Origin: Actinomycetota bacterium
Lineage (GTDB): Bacteria; Actinomycetota; Acidimicrobiia; IMCC26256; JACPCJ01
Length of the DNA stretch: 64,000 bases
Assembly (NCBI GenBank): GCA_016179865.1
Contig: JACPCJ010000106.1
Location: 8,950-72,949, forward strand
Direction of reading: 5' to 3'
The notes beneath the pieces were generated by a model. That model was given only the letters and a program-made list of their open reading frames with translations, did not search any database and was not told the origin of the DNA. The translations under genes and the position numbers were made by a program. This document shows, piece by piece, positions 28,818 through 43,401 of the stretch (position 1 is its first letter; each line of letters starts with the position of its first letter).

Positions 28818-31319
28818 GTGAGGTCCCTCACCGCCGTCTCCCAGCGCAGCCTCCGGCGACGGAAGGGCCGCTACGCGCTCACCGCCCTCGGCATCGCCCT
28901 CGGGGTCGGCATTGTCTTCGCTGTCGTGCTGACGAGCGGTGCGACCTCACGAGCGCTCGACCGTTTCGTGAGTGGTTTCACCGGCGACGCCGACGTGGTC
29001 GTGCATCCGTCGGGCACCTTCGACAGCGGGCTTGACCCCCGGGCCGTGGAGGCCGTGGAGAGGGATCCCGACGTGGAGCGGACGGTCGAGCGGTTCATGT
29101 TCCGCAGCTCGTTCGAACTCCGGGGTGAAGACATCGACTTTCGCGACTACATCGACGTCCACGGCTTCGACTTCGACCAGGCATCCGCCGTCCACAACTT
29201 CGTGCTCGCCCGCGGGCGTCTTCCGGAGCCGGGCCGGAAGGAGGTGCTGATCACGCCGGTGATCGAGAGCCGGGTGGGCGACGACGTCACCCTCGCGACG
29301 GCGAAGGGCCGCCAGCGTGTCCGCATCGTGGGAGAGCTGGCGGACGAGGGGGCCGCCATCGCCAACGGCGGCCGGGTCGTCTACACGACGATCGAGACGG
29401 CCCGTGCCATTCAGGACGCACCGGGCCAAGTGAGCCAGCTCGACCTGGTCCTCGGCGACGGCGTCGATACCGGGGAGTGGGTCGACGCCCACTCCGGTCG
29501 CCTCCCCGGCGGCGCGGTGGTGCGCGACGCGGCCGACCTCGCCTCTGGGTTCCGGGACTTCCTGGCCAGCGTGCAGGGGGCACTCACCATCGTCGCCGCC
29601 ATTGCCCTCTTCGTGGGCGCCTTCCTGATCTTCCTGACGTTCTCGGTGGCGGTGGCCGAGCGCACTCGGTTCTACGGCACCATCCGCGCCCTCGGTGCCC
29701 AGCCGGGTCAGGTCCGGCGCCTGGTGTTGGGCGAGGCCGTCCTCCTCGGCGTCGTGGCCAGCCTCGCCGGTCTCGGTGTGGGGTACGCGCTGTCGCTCCT
29801 CAGCCTGGGCCTCGTGAACTCCCTGATCGACGTCGGGTCGGTCACCCTCGAGGACCCCTGGGGGCCGGCCATCATGGCGGTGGCTCTCGGGACCGGCGTT
29901 TCCTTTGTGTCTTCGCTGATCCCTGCCCGCCGCGCTGCCAGCCTGAGCCCCGTCGCGGCCATGCGCGACGAGGCGGTCGACGGCCACGACCGCATCCGAG
30001 TGGTGCCACGAGCCGCGCTGCTCGTCGTCGGGGTCACGTTGACCCTCGTGAGCGGCAGCATCCTCGTGCAGGCCTTCGGCCTGCTCCTCATCATGCTCGG
30101 GGCCGTACTGCTCACCCCGGCCGTCCTCCGGCCCCTGGCCCGTGTCCTCGGGCGGATTACGGCACGGGCGGGCCGGGGGGTGGGAGACGTCGCCGTGATG
30201 CACCTGGTTAAGGAGCGCAGCCGCTCGGCGTACACCCTGGCCCTGGTCATGGTGGTGCTGGCGGCGATCATCGCCATCGGATCCAGCAACGCCTCGATGG
30301 CCAACTCGCTCGACGAGGTGGTCGACCGCCAGTTCGGGAGCGACCTGGTGGTCAGCGCCCCCAACACGTTTTCGGCCGACTTCGAGGATCGGCTGCGCGC
30401 GGTCGACGGCATCCGCTCTGTCTCCGAGACGCGGGTCGGTTTCGTCGAGATCCTCGAGGGTGACGGGTCGTCGTTCGGTCAGGAGTTTCTCTTGATCATC
30501 GACCCCGAGACGTACTTCGACGTGTCGAGCTTCCCCTGGGCCGACGGCGGCGACCGCGACGCCCGCGGCCGCCTTGCCCGGGGCGGGCAGGTGTTGCTTA
30601 GCGAGCCGCAGGCGGAAGACCTCGGCGTGGAGGTCGGGGGTCGGGTACGGGTGCAGACGCTGAAGGGCGCTCGCGACTTCACCCTCGCCGGCACGTTCAC
30701 CGTCCTCGGATTCAACGACGCCCTGGTGGTGAACCTCGACGACGGGGCGCGGTACTTCGGAGCCGACGAGCCCATGGGGTACCTCATCGACGTGGAGCCA
30801 GGAGTTGCCGTCGAAGGCGTCCGGCGAACCCTGAAGGACACGCTCGGCGGGCGCTACGACTTCGAGTTGGAGAGCGCCGAGGACGTGAAGGCCTTCGCCC
30901 GGAGCCAGCTTCAGGGGTTCTTCGGGATCGGTTACGCCGTCCTTCTGGTGGCCGTGATCATCGGGATCCTCGGCCTCGCCAACACGCTGATCGTCAGCGT
31001 CATCCAGCGCACCCGCGAGATCGGGGTCCTCCGCTCGACGGGCGTGCTCCGGGGCCAGCTCCGGGCCATGGTGCTGGCCGAGGCCGCCACCCTCATGCTG
31101 GCGGCGTGGGTTCTGTCGCTTCCCCTCGGGTTCATCCTCACCAGGGTGGCGGTCCAGGTGTTCGGCGCGTCACTCGGGTTCACCGTCGACTTCTACTGGC
31201 CGTGGGGCCTGCTCCCGTTCCTGCTCCTCTTGGCGCTCGTCGCCGGGGTCGTGGCCTCGCTCGGCCCGGCGCGGCGGGCGGCGCGGCTCGACCCGGTCGT
31301 GGCTCTCCGCTTCGACTGA
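28818..31319 (+). CDS. FtsX/MacB-like ABC permease (duplicated)
   Basis: Two MacB-periplasmic + FtsX TM modules; QRTREIGVLRSTG and PARRAA motifs. Confidence 0.9.
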   Translation: MRSLTAVSQRSLRRRKGRYALTALGIALGVGIVFAVVLTSGATSRALDRFVSGFTGDADVVVHPSGTFDSGLDPRAVEAVERDPDVERTVERFMFRSSFELRGEDIDFRDYIDVHGFDFDQASAVHNFVLARGRLPEPGRKEVLITPVIESRVGDDVTLATAKGRQRVRIVGELADEGAAIANGGRVVYTTIETARAIQDAPGQVSQLDLVLGDGVDTGEWVDAHSGRLPGGAVVRDAADLASGFRDFLASVQGALTIVAAIALFVGAFLIFLTFSVAVAERTRFYGTIRALGAQPGQVRRLVLGEAVLLGVVASLAGLGVGYALSLLSLGLVNSLIDVGSVTLEDPWGPAIMAVALGTGVSFVSSLIPARRAASLSPVAAMRDEAVDGHDRIRVVPRAALLVVGVTLTLVSGSILVQAFGLLLIMLGAVLLTPAVLRPLARVLGRITARAGRGVGDVAVMHLVKERSRSAYTLALVMVVLAAIIAIGSSNASMANSLDEVVDRQFGSDLVVSAPNTFSADFEDRLRAVDGIRSVSETRVGFVEILEGDGSSFGQEFLLIIDPETYFDVSSFPWADGGDRDARGRLARGGQVLLSEPQAEDLGVEVGGRVRVQTLKGARDFTLAGTFTVLGFNDALVVNLDDGARYFGADEPMGYLIDVEPGVAVEGVRRTLKDTLGGRYDFELESAEDVKAFARSQLQGFFGIGYAVLLVAVIIGILGLANTLIVSVIQRTREIGVLRSTGVLRGQLRAMVLAEAATLMLAAWVLSLPLGFILTRVAVQVFGASLGFTVDFYWPWGLLPFLLLLALVAGVVASLGPARRAARLDPVVALRFD

Positions 31320-36583: not shown

Positions 36584-37569
36584 CGGGGATGGAGGCCGGA
36601 GCCTCGTTCCCGGTCCTCACGTTCGGCGGCGGCCACGCCGTAGCCGATGACCATCGACGGCAGCAGGCTGACGCTGGCCACCACGAGGCAGCCGATGATG
36701 GCCGAGATGGTCCAGGCTGGGAGGTCCCAGTACAGGGCGACGCCGAAGAGCAGGACGGCCAGGGCCAGGGCGCCGAAGCCGACCCGCCGTCCCGTCTCCG
36801 CCCAGGCCGCGTAGCGAGCGCGCTGGACCGTGATGCGATCGGATGATGCGGCACGCCCCGAGGTCAGGTGGCGAGAGAGGGCTTCCAGAGCGTCGGCCAC
36901 CTCGCGGGGCGCCACAAGCATGTGCAGGTGCCCAGCGTCGAGGCTGACGACCCGCCATCCCCGTCGCCCGGCGGAGGAGGCGGCGTCCTCGTAAGCGGCC
37001 GAGAGCAGCAGGTAACCGCACGGCGCGTCCGGGAACGACGCCGGCACGGCGATCGGTTCCTCGAACAGCCGGAGGGGGAGTGGCTCCAGTTCTTCCGCGA
37101 ACCGGTCGCGCAAGGTCTCGTCGGGAACCAGGGCGGCGAGCACGGCGTCACTCCACCACTCCGCCCAGGGCGGGACCCGCCCGTCTGCGGCCAGGCCGCG
37201 GATCCGCTGAACGGACTCCGGTGGCGCGTCGTCGAACCGAGTGGCCCGGTTCACCGGCAGCCCGGCGTCGACGAAGACGTAACCGACGACCGGGTTGGTC
37301 AGGGTGTCCCCGGCGGCGGGCAGCACGGCCCCCGCCCCCGAGTGACCCACCAGCACGACCGGTGCCGTCCGGCTGTGGGCCTCGACGGCCTGGCGAACCT
37401 GCTCGGCGTGGTGGTGCAAGAGGGTGCCGGGGGTGGAGTCGGGGTTGTCGAGGCGGGGGAGCACGACGTCGTGGCCGCGCCGACGCAGCTCCTCAGCCAC
37501 GAGCGTCCACGTCAGCGACCCGACGAGCGGGCTGTGCACGAGCACGAAGACGGGGGCGTCTAGGGCCAT
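36577..37569 (-). CDS. Alpha/beta hydrolase fused to a C-terminal 2-TM domain
   Basis: LVHSPLVG, GHSGAG nucleophile, GHLHM catalytic His, then two hydrophobic helices. Confidence 0.8.
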   Translation of the reverse strand: MALDAPVFVLVHSPLVGSLTWTLVAEELRRRGHDVVLPRLDNPDSTPGTLLHHHAEQVRQAVEAHSRTAPVVLVGHSGAGAVLPAAGDTLTNPVVGYVFVDAGLPVNRATRFDDAPPESVQRIRGLAADGRVPPWAEWWSDAVLAALVPDETLRDRFAEELEPLPLRLFEEPIAVPASFPDAPCGYLLLSAAYEDAASSAGRRGWRVVSLDAGHLHMLVAPREVADALEALSRHLTSGRAASSDRITVQRARYAAWAETGRRVGFGALALAVLLFGVALYWDLPAWTISAIIGCLVVASVSLLPSMVIGYGVAAAEREDRERGSGLHPRS

Positions 37570-38651
37570 GTCCACCCGGCGAGATCGAAGAGTTCCTGGA
37601 GTCGGCCGGGGAGCAGTTCCAGCGCAAGGTGCCGGCGGGCGACATCGAGGTTCTTCTCCAGCGTCGCCGACTCGTCGCGCATCCCGATGAGCACGGCGGC
37701 CAGGGTTTCGGGGTCCGATGCCGACAAGAACTCGAAGCCCAGCCCGCGCAGCTCATCCATCACGGGGTAGTCACCGGCGGCGAGGGGCCGCCGGTGGGCG
37801 ACGGACTCGATCACGGGGTTGCCGAACCCCTCCCACGTCGAGGGGAAGGCGACGAGATCGCAAGCGGCGTAGGCATCACCGACGGGTTGGGCCGCGGCGC
37901 GGATCACCCCGACGCGGGTGCCGCGCAGCAAGTCGTCGAGGAGCGGCCCGTATCCGTCTTCGGCCGGGCCGGGGAGCCAGTAATGGATCCGGTGTCCGGG
38001 CAGGCGGGTATCGAGGGCGGCGCACAGGGCGAGCGCCCCGGGCACGTTCTTGCGGGCGATGGCGCGCACCGGGTGCAGCACGAGCAGGTCGCCGTCGTCG
38101 AGCCCCAGCGCCTCCCTCGTTTGGTCGCGGTTTCCCGGAGGCGGGTCGAGGTCGAAGTGGTTCCGCACCAGGTGTGCGGTGATCCCCCGGTCCCCGAGCT
38201 CTCGGCTGGACAGCTCGTTGATGGTCACGTGGAGGGCGTGCTCGAGGCGGGGCGGGAGCTCGTCGACGTGCTCGTATTCGGCCCGCTGCCACGGGAGGTC
38301 GTGGTGGCGGAGGATGACCCGACCGTGCGTCGCGATGACCTTCGCCACGACCCGGGCGGCGGGAAGGTTGAGGGGGAGCGACAGAAGGTTCTCGACGACG
38401 ACGAGGTCGGCTCCCTCGAGGGCGGCCTCCACGGCGACGGGGGGCGGGTCCACGTTCCCATCCGGTCCCCTGGGAAGGGCCAGCTCGGGGACGATGGCGT
38501 CGTCGCGCCGCCCTCCATCGAGGATCTCGCCGGCCAACCGCCGGGTGCGAAAGCCGAGTGTGGCGAGCGCGGACTCCCACTTGGCGGCCTCGACGGAGAC
38601 GCCGTCGGTGCCGCCGAGGCGGAACGAGACGAACACCGCCGTGGGGGCCAC
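37560..38651 (-). CDS. GT4-like glycosyltransferase
   Basis: GGTDGVSVEAAKW, HHDLPWQR, RAIARKN and PSTWEGFGNPVIE motifs. Confidence 0.88.
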   Translation of the reverse strand: MAPTAVFVSFRLGGTDGVSVEAAKWESALATLGFRTRRLAGEILDGGRRDDAIVPELALPRGPDGNVDPPPVAVEAALEGADLVVVENLLSLPLNLPAARVVAKVIATHGRVILRHHDLPWQRAEYEHVDELPPRLEHALHVTINELSSRELGDRGITAHLVRNHFDLDPPPGNRDQTREALGLDDGDLLVLHPVRAIARKNVPGALALCAALDTRLPGHRIHYWLPGPAEDGYGPLLDDLLRGTRVGVIRAAAQPVGDAYAACDLVAFPSTWEGFGNPVIESVAHRRPLAAGDYPVMDELRGLGFEFLSASDPETLAAVLIGMRDESATLEKNLDVARRHLALELLPGRLQELFDLAGWTWP

Positions 38652-38671
38652 GGGACGACGATAGAGCGGAG

Positions 38672-39340
38672 CTACCCGAGGCGGGGAAGGCGGCGGTTGA
38701 TGGCGTCGAGCACGGCCTTGGCCACCGCCTCTTGCTCCTGGTGGAGCCGCACCACGGCCGAGCCGGAAATGATCTGCTCCTCCGGCGGTACGACGGCGAC
38801 CACCGTCACCACCGCCACGTCGTTGATCCCGACCCGCACGATCTGCGCGCTGTCGACGTCGAGGCACTCGGCGGCGGGGACGAGCTGGCGCAGCGCGTCG
38901 AGCGTCGCCGCGCCCACGAGGCGGTGGCGCGCGGTCGAGGCGATGGTTCCCTCGGCGAAGCCCACGGCCTCGATCTCTTCAATGGCGAGCGTGACGCGGA
39001 CGAGGGTGCGCAGGCCCGAAGCCTCCGCGGTGATGCCCGTGATGGCCGGGCGTGGTGACACGCCGGCGTCGGGCTCGCGCTCGTCGGTGACCTGATCGCT
39101 CTCGAGTTGTACGACCGAGACGATGCGACGGTCGAGGTCGAGGCCGAAGCGAGCCAGCGCCACCGATTGGATGTCGCGCACGATCTGCTTCGCCGGCTTG
39201 CCGGGGCGCGCCAGCACGTGCACTTCGGTGGGCTGCTCGCCCTCGCCCACGATGCGCACGCCCGTGACGTCGGGCAGCCGACACAGCGCCTGCTCGACCT
39301 CCTCGAGGTCCACACCTCCCGTGCCCTCCGCGCCCTCCAT
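38672..39340 (-). CDS. Conserved hypothetical cytoplasmic protein, divergent from the peptide/HD-GYP genes
   Basis: EVHVLA...KQIVRDIQSV...RIVSVVQ and AVAKAVLDAINRR motifs; start could be 39355, 39340 or 39313. Confidence 0.8.
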   Translation of the reverse strand: MEGAEGTGGVDLEEVEQALCRLPDVTGVRIVGEGEQPTEVHVLARPGKPAKQIVRDIQSVALARFGLDLDRRIVSVVQLESDQVTDEREPDAGVSPRPAITGITAEASGLRTLVRVTLAIEEIEAVGFAEGTIASTARHRLVGAATLDALRQLVPAAECLDVDSAQIVRVGINDVAVVTVVAVVPPEEQIISGSAVVRLHQEQEAVAKAVLDAINRRLPRLG

Positions 39341-39858
39341 ACGTGTTCGGAGCATAGGGGTCGCGCGCGCAGCGTGAGGGGACGCCCAGAAATCACCCCG
39401 CAATCCTGAGGTGTGATCATGAAGGTCACGATGCGTGGCATTTCCCCAATGCGGCGGGAGTCCATGTCCGAGAAATTCTCGGGAACCACTTGATTCGCGG
39501 CCTCCGAACCGCTTGACTCTCCATTCACCGCATCGACGGCAACGGATGGATGCGGGCGGAGTGGGCCTGTTCGGGCCCAGGGCCTGGCCACCAAGACGCT
39601 GGCTCGGCGCGCCACCCACGCGAACCACGGGGGTGGGGTGCCGGACGGCAGGGAGGTGCGCGGGACACGAAGCGGATGAGCTTGACAACCTGACGCGCCG
39701 CGGATCGCCGCGGGCGGAGCCGGCAGGGCCTCGCCCGGGCCCCCGTTTCGGATTCGATATGAACCGATTCGGTGTGCCCGGAGCGGAGCGGACCCCATAC
39801 CAGCGGAGCGGATTGCCCCCACACGCAGGGAGTGATCAACCGCCAAGGAGGGGTGTCC

Positions 39859-39948
39859 ATGAGAACAGCCTTCGTCCGGCTCGCAGCCGTAGCGACGGTA
39901 ATCGTGGCTTCCCTTGCCACCGGTGGCCTCGGCTACCGGTGGGAGTGA
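39859..39948 (+). CDS. Small 29-aa peptide, putative signal precursor (not in the ORF track)
   Basis: SD AAGGAGG at 39845-39851, ATG 39859, TGA 39946-39948; MRTAFVRLAAVATVIVASLATGGLGYRWE. Confidence 0.75.
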   Translation: MRTAFVRLAAVATVIVASLATGGLGYRWE

Positions 39949-40084: not shown

Positions 40085-41389
40085 GTGACGGCCACCGCAG
40101 GGGTCGTCGCCACGTTCATCGCGCGCGCGGGAATTTCCAATATGGAAGCCTTCGCGACCTTCGCTCTGGTTGCCATGGGAGCCGAGCTGATCAGCGTCCG
40201 GCTTCCGAATGGCGCCACCGCATCCGCGCTCATGGTGCCCGTGATCGCCGCCGTATACGCCCTCGGCGTCGGCGGCACGTACTGGGCCGGCGCCCTGGTC
40301 GCCGCCTTCGGCGGGCTCTACCTTCCCGACCTTCGTGGCGCCCGCTTCGATCGGGTCATCTTCAACAGCGCCATGCTGCTGCTCGCCGGAACGGGGGCGG
40401 CCGCCGTCTTCGCCGTGCTCGACCCCGCCGCGCACCCGTCGGTGCCCGCGTTCCTTTTCGCCACCGTGCCCGCCGGCCTCGTGTTCCTCGGCCTCAATGT
40501 GGCGCTCTTGGTGCCGATGCTGGCCCTCGACCAGGGTCGGCCGGCGCGCGAGTTCCTCGCCAGCCTGTCGCCCTTCCACGCGCAGTACATCCCCTTTGCC
40601 ATCATCGGCACCGGCCTGGGGTGGGTCTACCTGGTGACGGGGCCGCTCATCATTCCGTTGGCCGTTGCGCCGGTGCTCGTCGCCCGCCAGACCTTCCGTT
40701 CATACCTGGCCCTGCGTGACGCCCACGAGCAGACCCTTCGGACGCTGGTGCGCACGCTGGAACGCAAGGACCCGTACACGGCCGGGCACGTCGAACGGGT
40801 CGCCACGTACGCCCGCTACATCGGAGAGGAGCTCGGCCTCTCTGAGATCCGCCAGGAGCGGCTCCGGTACGCGGCGCTGATGCACGACGTCGGCAAGCTG
40901 GTGGTCTCCAATCACCTCCTGCGCAAGCCCGACCGCCTGACCGCCGAGGAGTACGAGCGGGTACGCCTGCATGAGGCGGTGTCGGTCGAGCTCCTGCGCC
41001 GGATCGACTTCCTGCGACCGATCGCCACGTCGGCTTCGCCCCGCTATGCGCGGTACGACGCCCGCGGGCCGACCGATCCCATCGAGCCCTACGTGATCGT
41101 GGTCGCCGACGCCTACGACGCCATGACCTCGACCCGCCCCTACCGCCGGGCTCTGCCGCAGCCGGTCGCCTTCTCTGAACTCCGTCGGCACGCGGGCACC
41201 CAGTTCCACCCGGCCTGCGTGGAGGCCCTCATCCGGGCACTGGACCGGCGCGAAGAACGCCACGGGCTCGGCCACGAGGAGCAAGTGGTCGTCTTCGACA
41301 CCGAGCCTCCCGTGCGGGGCCCCGGCTCGGCGGGTCTCGGTGACCTGGCTCCGAACGCGCCACCCCGCGTGCCGGAGCGTCACGCGTGA
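40085..41389 (+). CDS. Membrane-bound HD-GYP-family protein (multi-TM sensor + HD domain)
   Basis: About 6-7 TM helices, then KDPYTAGHVERVA, HDVGK, DAYDAMTSTRPYR and AGTQFHP; the HHE/GYP segment is degenerate. Confidence 0.9.
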   Translation: MTATAGVVATFIARAGISNMEAFATFALVAMGAELISVRLPNGATASALMVPVIAAVYALGVGGTYWAGALVAAFGGLYLPDLRGARFDRVIFNSAMLLLAGTGAAAVFAVLDPAAHPSVPAFLFATVPAGLVFLGLNVALLVPMLALDQGRPAREFLASLSPFHAQYIPFAIIGTGLGWVYLVTGPLIIPLAVAPVLVARQTFRSYLALRDAHEQTLRTLVRTLERKDPYTAGHVERVATYARYIGEELGLSEIRQERLRYAALMHDVGKLVVSNHLLRKPDRLTAEEYERVRLHEAVSVELLRRIDFLRPIATSASPRYARYDARGPTDPIEPYVIVVADAYDAMTSTRPYRRALPQPVAFSELRRHAGTQFHPACVEALIRALDRREERHGLGHEEQVVVFDTEPPVRGPGSAGLGDLAPNAPPRVPERHA

Positions 41390-42648
41390 GTACCACGCAC
41401 ATCTCGGTTTCGCCGGCGCGCCGCGTCAGCGACCCCGGTGCACCGCGCCTGCGCGCCGACGTTTCGCTCGTTCTGGCGCTCGCCGCCCTGGTGGCGGTCA
41501 CGGTCGCCCTCACCACGACCGGCGACTGGGGCCGGGTGGCAGCCCTCGGCGCGGCGCTCGTGGTTGGTGAACTGCTGGTGGTCGAGCTCATGGACGAGAC
41601 CACCCTTCCACTCTCGCTGATGGTGCTCGTGCCGCTCGTCGCCGAGGCGGGCCTCGCCCCCACGCTCCTCGCCACCGCCGGAGCCACGGGCGCCGCCGCC
41701 ATCCTGGCTCGCCACGCGTCGCTCCGGAGTTGGGCGTCCACCGTGGGGGCGAGAACCACCACCGCCGCCGCGGCGTGGGCAGTCTTCTGGGGCGCGGACC
41801 GCCTCCTCCGGGGGGGCGGCGGTCTGGCGGCGTCGGCGCTGCCGGCCACGGCTGCGGCGGCGTCGCTCCTCGCCCTGGTACTTGCCGAGCGGCGGCTGCG
41901 GCGGGCGGGGTCCTTCCACGGCGCCCGCGGCCACGGCGCCTTCTTCGCCGTGGCGGCGAGCGGGGTGCTCACGGCGATCGGCAGCGCCGGGGTCGACGGG
42001 CGGGGCGGCATGGGCCTGTGGGCCCTGGTCGTCTTCGCCGTCCCCGCGCTCTCGGCGAGGTGGGCCTTCGGTCGTTTGCACGCCATCCGGCGGACGTACG
42101 ACCAGACCATCGACGTCCTTTCCGTGGTCCCCGAGATGGGGGGCCGGGCCCGCCCCGGCCACTCTCGCCGCGTCGCCGAGCTGTGCGTCGACACGGGTCG
42201 GATGCTTGGCCTCTCGGCTCCGGCGCTCGAAGACCTGGAGCGTGCCGCCCTCCTGCACGCGCTCGGATCGGTGACGTTCGACGATCACGATCCTCCCGGA
42301 ACCTCCCGCGGGCCCCGTGAAGTCGCGGGCGCGACGGTCGGCGTGCTGGCCGACGAGGAGCGTCTCTCCCGCCCGGCCGGCCTCGTGGCCGGGATGGCGG
42401 GGGAACCGGTCACCCTCACCGACGAGGAACTTCTGGCGGCCCGCGTGCTCAGAGCGGCGGCGTCCTTCGAAGAAGTGGCCGGCGGCGACCCGTCGCGGGC
42501 CCGGCTGGCGCTGGCGACGACGATCGAGCTCGGCGGGTCGGCTCGCCCGTCAGGTCGCCCGTCAGCTCAAGACGGGACTGACCGACGAGTCGTGGCCGCC
42601 CTGGCCCGCGTCGTCACCCGGCGGGCCCTCGTGAGCCATCGCGGGTAG
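41386..42648 (+). CDS. Second membrane protein with a degenerate HD-GYP-like domain
   Basis: Multi-TM N-terminus, GHSRRVA, ALLHALG (HD replaced by HA); GTGA overlap with the upstream gene. Confidence 0.75.
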   Translation: MSTTHISVSPARRVSDPGAPRLRADVSLVLALAALVAVTVALTTTGDWGRVAALGAALVVGELLVVELMDETTLPLSLMVLVPLVAEAGLAPTLLATAGATGAAAILARHASLRSWASTVGARTTTAAAAWAVFWGADRLLRGGGGLAASALPATAAAASLLALVLAERRLRRAGSFHGARGHGAFFAVAASGVLTAIGSAGVDGRGGMGLWALVVFAVPALSARWAFGRLHAIRRTYDQTIDVLSVVPEMGGRARPGHSRRVAELCVDTGRMLGLSAPALEDLERAALLHALGSVTFDDHDPPGTSRGPREVAGATVGVLADEERLSRPAGLVAGMAGEPVTLTDEELLAARVLRAAASFEEVAGGDPSRARLALATTIELGGSARPSGRPSAQDGTDRRVVAALARVVTRRALVSHRG

Positions 42649-43188
42649 CCGCCCACCTCGTCGCCGCGGCGGGCGGGACGCCCGGAAGATCACGTCGAGA
42701 AGGCCCACGCCAAGGATCAGGTCGCCGAAGCTGATCGCCCGGTCGATCGGCTCGGGCAGGAGCACGATCTGGCCCAGGGAGCGCAGGGCGGCGGCGTCGT
42801 TCTCGGGCACGTGGGTGACCGACTCCTCGAGCTCGCGCATCCGGACGTCACTGGCATCCTCGGGCAAACGCGTTGGCATGCCGCCGTTGACGGCGACGAC
42901 CAGGGTGTTGAGCGCCACACCGATCAAGACCACCGACATGCCCGTGAGTCGGAGGTTCCGGGCGCAGAACACGACGAGGGCGCCGTAGGAGCCGAGGTAT
43001 ACGGCCAGGCCGGCCGACTCGGGCCAGCCGTCGGTTGGAGACCAGAGGCCGAGGGCGAGTTGGGCTGCGAGGGCGAGTGGCGGGAGGACGATCCAGCGCA
43101 CCCGAGCGTCGGCCAGACGCCCAAGGCGGCCTTGGCCGACCACTGCGGTGCAGGCGCCGAGCGCGATCGCCACGGCGATCAGTTCCAA
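42562..43188 (-). CDS. DUF5317-like membrane protein
   Basis: GRLGRL...W, NLRLTGM, GVALNTLVVAVNGGMP, H...LG and SFGD motifs; likely TTG start at 43188. Confidence 0.8.
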   Translation of the reverse strand: MELIAVAIALGACTAVVGQGRLGRLADARVRWIVLPPLALAAQLALGLWSPTDGWPESAGLAVYLGSYGALVVFCARNLRLTGMSVVLIGVALNTLVVAVNGGMPTRLPEDASDVRMRELEESVTHVPENDAAALRSLGQIVLLPEPIDRAISFGDLILGVGLLDVIFRASRPPRRRGGRLPAMAHEGPPGDDAGQGGHDSSVSPVLS

Positions 43189-43361
43189 TTTGCCTTGCTC
43201 CCTCGGCTGTTCCGGCCTCGCTCGCCTGTCGCCGGGCCTCCTTCGGGGTCCCCGCCCGGCGCCAATTTGCCTTGCTCCCTCGTCCGTTCCGGTCTCGCTC
43301 GCCTGTCGCCGGGCACCCCTCTGTCGCCGGGCACCCCTGAGGGGTCCCCGCCCGGCGCCAA
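43185..43361 (-). repeat. Two tandem copies of a ~77-bp dispersed repeat (third copy at 62837-62910)
   Basis: CCAATTTGCCTTGCTCCCTCG...GGGGTCCCCGCCCGGCG occurs twice; the second copy has an 18-bp internal duplication (43303-43320 and 43321-43338). Confidence 0.85.
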
Positions 43362-43401
43362 CAGCCACCGTACCGCCGGCGTCTCTGATAGATACGGACC
43401 C

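Follow-up and report, generated by a model that had tools for sequence, protein, structure and literature searches.

The window analysed here, a 64,000-nucleotide stretch of Actinomycetota DNA, carries an unannotated open reading frame of only 29 codons just upstream of a gene for a membrane sensor. This arrangement raises the question of whether such a short frame is a gene and, if so, what its product would do beside the sensor.

A conserved gene of 29 codons

The frame occupies positions 39859–39948 of the forward strand, from the ATG at 39859 to the TGA at 39946–39948. Its 29-residue translation consists of a basic N-terminus, a hydrophobic helix, the tripeptide Gly-Gly-Leu (Gly-Gly-Ala in the family) and a five-residue tail. 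A Shine-Dalgarno sequence, AAGGAGG (39845–39851, forward strand), is placed 7 nt before the ATG, and its core is invariant across 7 close loci. Position, ribosome-binding site and translation agree with those given by a first-pass annotation made from the sequence alone. When all the frames of 20–45 residues of the genome preceded by AGGAGG 5–9 nt before an ATG or GTG were ranked (n = 75), this peptide was the most hydrophobic (13-residue mean of 2.48; 1.95 for the runner-up). The gene is present in a single copy in the genome of the window.

The selection analysis that the first-pass annotation had proposed was carried out on 24 disjoint orthologue pairs chosen by nucleotide identity, and gave a pN/pS of 0.39 for the family, with 84, 51 and 153 substitutions at the first, second and third codon positions, respectively. 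For the window peptide and its closest orthologue (G004) pS was 0.37 and pN 0.09. Disrupted orthologues, which the same annotation had named among the observations that would count against its reading, are scarce. Among 41 related genomes searched, 29 have the receptor gene, and in 24 of these a clear, intact peptide orthologue lies upstream of it; another two (G013 and G032) contain divergent candidates that score below the control maximum, yet are accompanied by a Shine-Dalgarno sequence and the upstream box described below, and two (G031 and G037) show no peptide at the receptor. The single frameshifted copy (G030) belongs to an assembly in which the neighbouring genes are frameshifted too. 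The 29-codon frame is a real, conserved and unannotated gene. Its exact product was not matched in a collection of 15 billion proteins, no convincing Pfam or NCBIfam family was matched by the peptide and 54 relatives, and a search of the locus for a sigma-70 promoter or a terminator found neither.

Anatomy of the peptide family

The orthologue collection comprises 91 distinct peptides, in which kin are counted and are not independent; loci from three unpublished genomes (G159, G185 and G058) take part in the alignments and counts, and no conclusion rests on them. The common layout is a basic and hydrophobic leader of about 24 residues, a near-invariant Ala, referred to here as the anchor (87/91), and a variable tail. 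The leader measures 24 residues up to the anchor in 65 peptides, the tail is five residues long in 70, and the total length is 29 residues in 53. At −11, −10 and −7 of the leader small residues are retained (entropy of 1.35–2.3 bits), and they also occupy positions −3 and −1 of a cut placed after the anchor in 85/91. There are 76 distinct tails, and none of their residues is conserved. Lys or Arg occurs within the last five residues in 84 peptides, Trp within the last six in 40 and an acidic residue within the last six in seven, while Cys appears anywhere in just one. In 49/91 the motif comes after a Leu-Ala-Gly that recalls a lipobox; the lipobox Cys of an LspA substrate was not found.

Several of these features bear on the first-pass annotation, which had described a leader-plus-core precursor releasing a product of 6–9 residues, possibly modified or cyclised, with a conserved C-terminal Trp motif. 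The leader-plus-tail anatomy holds, and it is doubtful whether this organism releases a pheromone, given the Leu at the anchor and a Gln in the DUF5317 protein (see below). The homologous tail is limited to the last five residues, with the family boundary falling after the residue that follows Gly-Gly; the scarcity of Cys speaks against modification or cyclisation, as does a scan of the neighbourhood in which no gene for a modifying enzyme was seen, and the Trp is far from general. Its expectation of pherotype-like divergence was borne out, since the leader is constant and the tails differ among paralogues within one genome. One genome (G012) encodes seven peptides with seven different tails and one DUF5317, and another (G025) three peptides and one DUF5317. 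In five of six close paralogue pairs the tail identity is 0.4–0.8 at a leader identity of 0.85–0.95; the sixth pair, a tandem duplicate, has identical tails.

The window peptide has Leu at the anchor, where 138 of 139 clusters from a database search have Ala, although the search profile itself favours Ala-bearing matches; the sole non-Ala cluster carries the window peptide's own tail. By its sequence it is an odd member of the family, at exactly the site that a peptidase would read.

Distribution of the peptide

Among the 12 related genomes with no receptor match the peptide is present in only one (G003), a 68%-complete assembly in which a contig end cuts the receptor, and DUF5317 is retained in 11. 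With clear peptides in 24 of the 29 genomes that have the receptor, the peptide tracks the receptor and not DUF5317. Other receptors with no detected peptide are those of G078 and of two large genomes, G064 and G079, each with an HdgA-like gene. The association with DUF5317 that the first-pass annotation had suggested is nevertheless visible, as an iterated profile detected the peptide at 50 of the 80 loci that had been retrieved with DUF5317 as the only query; in short loci the figure is 8/30. The cut was set at 13 bits, and 35 LspA control loci reach at most 5.9 bits.

The 139 clusters mentioned above were retrieved with a profile from a set of 1.84 billion representatives, and 132 of them end 4–6 residues past the anchor. 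A search by the DNA pattern alone (box, Shine-Dalgarno sequence and start), with no protein query, found six family peptides among 119 metagenome loci, and a MASE9 or partner gene occurs at those six loci only. In the Bacillota, the same module is present in Natranaerobius thermophilus (NZ_CP144220.1), where the peptide has no annotated CDS, and in Subdoligranulum variabile (OY725879.1). In Euzebya pacifica a family peptide precedes a GGDEF-EAL gene. The pairing of peptide and sensor thus recurs in two bacterial phyla.

Some unusual arrangements were observed. At L043:2197–2669 the peptide gene is duplicated in tandem; the two copies have the same tail and are flanked by DUF5317 on one side and a MASE9 gene on the other. 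Three entries (P0052, P0066 and P0115) contain two precursor units per frame, and may be polyproteins or the result of sequencing errors at stop codons. Two orphan peptides (L058:1151–1246 and L260:1233–1322) have no adjacent receptor and are followed by an acyl-CoA carboxylase-like gene on the opposite strand, as judged by eye.

The MASE9-like sensor

The gene downstream of the peptide (40085–41389, forward strand; the true start may lie about 10–15 codons further upstream) encodes a membrane sensor with a MASE9-like N-terminal region and an HD-GYP-type domain. It is followed at 41386–42648, on the same strand, by another membrane-protein gene, whose product has a degenerate HD domain, in an HdgB-like arrangement. 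Pfam MASE9 was not matched by the N-terminal domain of the window sensor; its assignment is indirect, as in the ESM Atlas the domain falls closest to MASE9 clusters (score of 0.90). A MASE9-like gene lies directly downstream of 82 of the 91 peptides, at 30–470 nt, a count that is partly circular because 24 peptides came via the receptor query, six profile seeds were added by eye and the MASE9 profile was derived from the genes downstream of peptides. In four further cases the gene is found in divergent orientation within 1.5 kb; two peptides are cut by contig ends and three have no MASE9 by profile, one of which precedes a degenerate membrane HD gene by inspection. The four opposite-strand sensors argue for action of the peptide in trans.

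The outputs carried by the sensors are diverse. Of 37 downstream proteins, Pfam assigned HD to 28, HisKA to three, GGDEF to three, and GGDEF-EAL and GAF to one each, the remaining one being truncated; MASE9 itself (PF20972) was matched in 14 of them. The pairing is kept whatever the output domain, and there is one tail variant per paralogous sensor, so the peptide belongs to the sensor domain and not to the enzyme. The receptor-like neighbour is the peptide's tightest link.

A closer inspection of the output domain in the window showed that the HD motif is kept, as are the downstream Asp and Arg motifs in the HD-GYP-type domain of the window's order, and that the HHE metal ligands and the GYP loop are absent in the window sensor and in the compared relatives of the same order. 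Both elements are present in Natranaerobius and in loci L210–L212. As the two HD domains of the window are degenerate and neither has the GYP loop, hydrolysis of c-di-GMP is doubtful and probably not what the pair does. More likely outputs are the binding of a nucleotide or contact with a protein; the HD-GYP-type domain is probably a pseudo-enzyme or a nucleotide-binding module.

DUF5317 and the anchor alanine

Convergent to the sensor genes, at 42562–43188 on the reverse strand, lies a gene for a DUF5317 membrane protein, the candidate peptide-processing enzyme; the source of one homologue, 55% identical, assigns it to Acidimicrobiia. The residues conserved in DUF5317 are three Asn, a Met-Pro, a Ser-x-Gly-Asp and one further Asp. 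In an alignment of 194 rows, three of which are partial duplicates, the first Asp is present in 167 and the second in 188. The exceptions at the first Asp are 16 long fused forms, six distinct proteins with Gln (that of the window included), one with Glu and one with Ser. In the window protein the first Asp is replaced by Gln (codon 42769–42771) and the second is intact (42721–42723), so that the aspartate pair of an LspA-like peptidase is found in the DUF5317 family and is incomplete in the window's copy. Among 22 longer homologues seven are fused to MFS transporters, with L041, L058, P0020 and P0036–P0040 listed as fusions. Other long fusions (P0021–P0035) do not have the first Asp, and at L179:4794–7334 of Euzebya pacifica DUF5317 is found inside a gene annotated as an EAL-domain protein.

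The state of the anchor follows that of DUF5317 in several lineages. The four non-Ala peptides of the collection are those of G000 and G004, in which Gln replaces the first Asp of DUF5317, and those of G021 and G039, in which no DUF5317 was detected. DUF5317 was found in none of the four genomes of family f18, in which three of four peptides do not have the Ala, and in none of the ten genomes of family f40, in which all six peptides (from seven receptor loci) are without it. The f40 peptides end in Gly-Trp-x-Trp/Phe, three residues after the Gly; as they keep both box and aromatic tail, the peptide would be retained there without the putative cut. Overall, three lineages, that of the window among them, have lost the Ala, and in each of these DUF5317 was either not found or has another residue at its first Asp. 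The Ala is kept in three exceptions: G343, without a DUF5317 match (82% complete), and G002 and G032, in which the Asp is replaced by Glu and by Ser, respectively. Two further genomes (G009 and G029) also have the Gln in DUF5317, and neither a peptide nor a receptor was matched in them. This co-loss of Ala and of DUF5317 or its first Asp gives indirect support to DUF5317 as a candidate peptidase that would likely cut the peptide at Ala in canonical members.

The possibility that DUF5317 is a homologue of the lipoprotein signal peptidase LspA (PF01252) was considered and did not find support. It is attractive by eye, as the Asp pairs of the two proteins follow a similar order, align in register and have their second member where the last helix begins. 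However, the similarity is statistically unsupported: hhalign gave a probability of 14% with six LspA sequences and of 3.7% and 1.4% with 35; five of 150 column shuffles reach the score and reversed LspA scores higher. In three fold searches LspA was not listed by Foldseek or VIA-align for the DUF5317 model (pLDDT 87), the lists being filled by helical bundles (best Z of 8.2), and the ESM Atlas returned no usable match outside DUF5317. The peptides, in addition, do not offer the lipobox Cys of LspA substrates.

The upstream box and the partner gene

Upstream of the peptide gene the motif AGCGRAGCG occurs twice on the forward strand, in a proximal copy at 39802–39810 and a second one at 39782–39790, preceded by another conserved non-coding motif at 39716–39733 on the same strand. 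The latter was found by a loose pattern in 27 of 89 leaders, mostly from the window's order, and has no Rfam match. Among the 89 peptides with enough flank, 63 have AGCGRAGCG within 200 nt upstream, about 55–90 nt from the start, against a background of 0.009 per 200 nt. The box is not enriched in the window as a whole (3 found, 3.25 expected), and its weight is due to its position before the peptides and not to its abundance. In the f18 and f40 loci (L407–L410 and L400–L406) an extra box is often seen right after the peptide stop or before the receptor start.

The box goes together with a divergent conserved gene, the partner gene (38672–39340, reverse strand), in both Actinomycetota and Bacillota. 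Box and partner are both present for 57 peptides, the box alone for two, the partner alone for none and neither for 25 (84 peptides, with kin that are not independent, after seven were dropped for short flanks). One genome (G006) keeps the partner gene without the peptide. The C-terminal domain of the partner model (pLDDT 91) has the regulatory fold of LeuA and citramalate synthase, with a Foldseek E value of 6e-6 for the LeuA regulatory domain and a Z of 9.4 over 109 residues (rmsd 3.0) for the citramalate synthase domain; the N-terminal domain is a small alpha/beta fold common to the C-terminal domains of transporters and ligases and uninformative on function. The model makes the partner a candidate ligand-controlled regulator and, from the co-occurrence, it would likely bind the box as a putative RNA or DNA site. 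Conserved RNA structure is unsupported, as RNAalifold found no consensus pairs in two leader alignments and folding of single leaders gave a mean z of −0.79 (63 leaders; −0.4 in the window), and the box may therefore be a DNA site. A riboswitch in the leader was also considered and discarded, since the window and 14 loci gave no Rfam match beyond one at chance level each.

Comparison with known systems

Small membrane proteins that regulate sensor kinases are exemplified by MgrB and SafA, both acting on PhoQ. Like them, the window peptide would be a micro-protein of one helix working on a membrane sensor within its own cell. No sequence relation was found, and the present peptides form a whole family in which each sensor has its own variant, the tail varies and an enzyme is a candidate for their processing. 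In the AgrD/AgrB/AgrC system precursor, dedicated membrane protein and membrane receptor are encoded in one locus, as they are here. The AgrD precursor has a conserved ring Cys or Ser and an acidic C-terminal follower; neither is found in the peptides, DUF5317 is not AgrB and the receptor is not AgrC-like. The ComX pheromone has an invariant Trp near its C-terminus and an adjacent ComQ transferase, in contrast to this family, with Trp in the last six residues of 40/91, and to its scanned neighbours, among which no ComQ-type enzyme is present.

The MASE9-HD-GYP proteins presented as examples in the parts of the literature consulted are TM1467 of Thermotoga maritima and HdgA/HdgB of Streptomyces venezuelae (bioRxiv 10.1101/2021.11.05.467447; PMC6205966). 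In the portion of the latter report seen, the hdgA-hdgB mutant shows no phenotype, which its authors ascribe to a missing activating signal (Al-Bassam et al., PMC6205966). As far as those texts describe it, the window pair has the same organization, in which a membrane sensor with an HD-GYP-type domain and a degenerate paralogue form one operon. It differs in that the first HD domain of the window also has no HHE and GYP, and in that no peptide was found in the two large genomes with an HdgA-like gene. The analysis by Galperin and Chou that defines MASE9 (bioRxiv 10.1101/2021.11.05.467447), in the sections consulted, gives no ligand, predicts binding within the membrane and describes the outer loops as short and poorly conserved; the terms "peptide" and "small protein" have no occurrence in its main text.

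An RRNPP propeptide is described, in the sections consulted of PMC10075063, as having 10–100 residues, a basic N-terminus and a hydrophobic region, and the window peptide falls within this description. According to the same sections, the Phr, PapR and AimP systems also resemble the present one in the short basic-hydrophobic precursor, the variable C-terminal code, the location beside the cognate receptor and the several pairs per genome. Compared with them as described there, the receptor here is a membrane MASE9 protein with an enzyme or kinase output instead of a cytoplasmic TPR protein, no pro-region separates helix and tail, and a dedicated DUF5317 travels along. No TPR receptor is found next to the peptide, the neighbours being the membrane HD proteins, DUF5317 and the LeuA-fold protein. 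The MASE9 peptides are mainly found in Actinomycetota, for which those sections name small molecules as the typical signals. By analogy, the signalling logic resembles that of the Phr, Agr and MgrB-type systems, with no component homologous by the evidence gathered here. In the literature searched, with subscription journals mostly outside its scope, no description was found of a peptide-MASE9 system, of DUF5317 or of a microprotein with HD-GYP.

Proposed mechanism and alternatives

The reading that we favour, at slightly less than even confidence, is that the peptide would act as the dedicated ligand of the MASE9-like sensor next door, and that in this organism it would probably remain intact, the helix keeping it in the membrane and the tail being offered to the sensor. 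The peptide would insert with its N-terminus inside and its C-terminus outside beside the sensor and bind MASE9, the tail setting the specificity, and the partner protein would control its expression through the AGCGRAGCG box. In most lineages DUF5317, as an accessory two-aspartate membrane peptidase, would cut at the Ala and so release or remove the tail. In the window lineage this cut has probably been lost, because both the Ala (to Leu) and the first Asp (to Gln) are changed, leaving the peptide tethered to the membrane. A small-x-small site of the signal peptidase I type remains in the window peptide (after Ser-Leu-Ala or Thr-Gly-Gly), so that housekeeping cleavage would be possible.

The main alternative, which is the model of the first-pass annotation, is a released pheromone, in which DUF5317 or signal peptidase I would cut off the leader as a disposable signal sequence and a free tail of 4–6 residues (5–9 in the window) would diffuse between cells and be sensed by MASE9, like a Phr-type code recognised at the membrane. 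We regard it as possible but less probable than the tethered ligand. The prevalence of five-residue tails (70/91), the small residues at −3 and −1 (85/91), the 76 distinct tails and the paralogues with near-identical leaders and different tails all fit it well, as do the DUF5317-MFS fusions (7/22 longer homologues) and the use of one enzyme for several peptide-sensor pairs. It has to accommodate, however, the Leu anchor and the Gln of DUF5317 in the window, the persistence of peptides in two families in which no DUF5317 was detected, the small residues at −11, −10 and −7, which resemble a packing helix more than a disposable signal, and outer loops of MASE9 that are short and poorly conserved according to the consulted sections of bioRxiv 10.1101/2021.11.05.467447. 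Release remains a strong explanation for the family and a possible one in the window through signal peptidase I; canonical members may well be in the released state even if the window peptide is not. A conserved helix face of small residues, together with the fixed length (29 residues in 53/91), the one copy per sensor and the retention without DUF5317, would also suit a structural subunit serving the folding, dimerisation or stability of the MASE9 sensor, or of the HD pair, with an uninformative tail and the signal elsewhere. We consider this unlikely, as paralogue tails diverge faster than leaders (five of six close pairs), some receptors have no peptide, and the conserved box and partner gene suggest regulated and not stoichiometric synthesis.

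Two other explanations appear very improbable. One is a modified or cyclised peptide (an AgrD-like lactone, a ComX-like prenylated Trp or a lipidated product) with DUF5317 as transferase or cyclase. The invariant Asn, Ser, Gly-Asp and Met-Pro of DUF5317 fit an enzyme and the Leu-Ala-Gly of 49/91 peptides recalls a lipobox, but Cys occurs in 1/91, Trp in 40/91 and an acidic tail in 7/91, the tail has no conserved residue, and the AgrD model (TIGR04223) matches 2 of 55 sequences at an E value of 0.1 or worse. The other, to which we give an equally small chance, is a cis-acting leader peptide whose translation would control the sensor operon by attenuation, as its place 30–470 nt before the sensor in 82/91, behind a conserved box with hairpin-forming sequence, might suggest. 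Against it stand the opposite-strand sensor of four loci, the amino-acid anatomy kept under purifying selection, and the lack in the window of a terminator-like site and of a regulatory codon run.

A more far-reaching reading, which we regard as possible but less likely than not, would be a new peptide-signalling system of Actinomycetota and Bacillota, human-gut Clostridia included. DUF5317 would represent a novel type of aspartyl peptidase in the membrane, cutting precursors of 25–30 residues at the invariant Ala; the resulting receptor-specific pentapeptide codes would be recognised within the membrane by the MASE9 domains of kinases and of c-di-GMP enzymes; the LeuA-fold regulator would give feedback on the conserved leader box; and the window lineage, as a natural variant no longer able to make the cut, would keep its ligand locked in the tethered form. 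As a ligand of MASE9, the peptide would extend gene-encoded peptide signalling to non-mycelial Actinomycetota and link it to kinases and c-di-GMP enzymes. For MASE9, a widespread domain of membrane sensors whose one studied member gave no phenotype, the peptide is a concrete candidate signal, and DUF5317 would gain a testable substrate and cut site. Both the 29-mer and its five-residue tail are cheap to synthesise, to swap between paralogues and to test on the cognate sensor, and the natural co-loss of Ala and Asp in the window offers a ready-made control pair.

Two other features of the neighbourhood were observed. Directly after the partner gene, at 37560–38867 on the reverse strand, lies a family-4-type glycosyltransferase gene, which stays beside DUF5317 in relatives without peptide and receptors (L219 and L224). 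Between DUF5317 and an enoyl-CoA hydratase gene, at 43190–43370, short imperfect repeats are present, and similar ones, seen only as odd translations of open reading frames, occur near 31300, 33800 and 45900.
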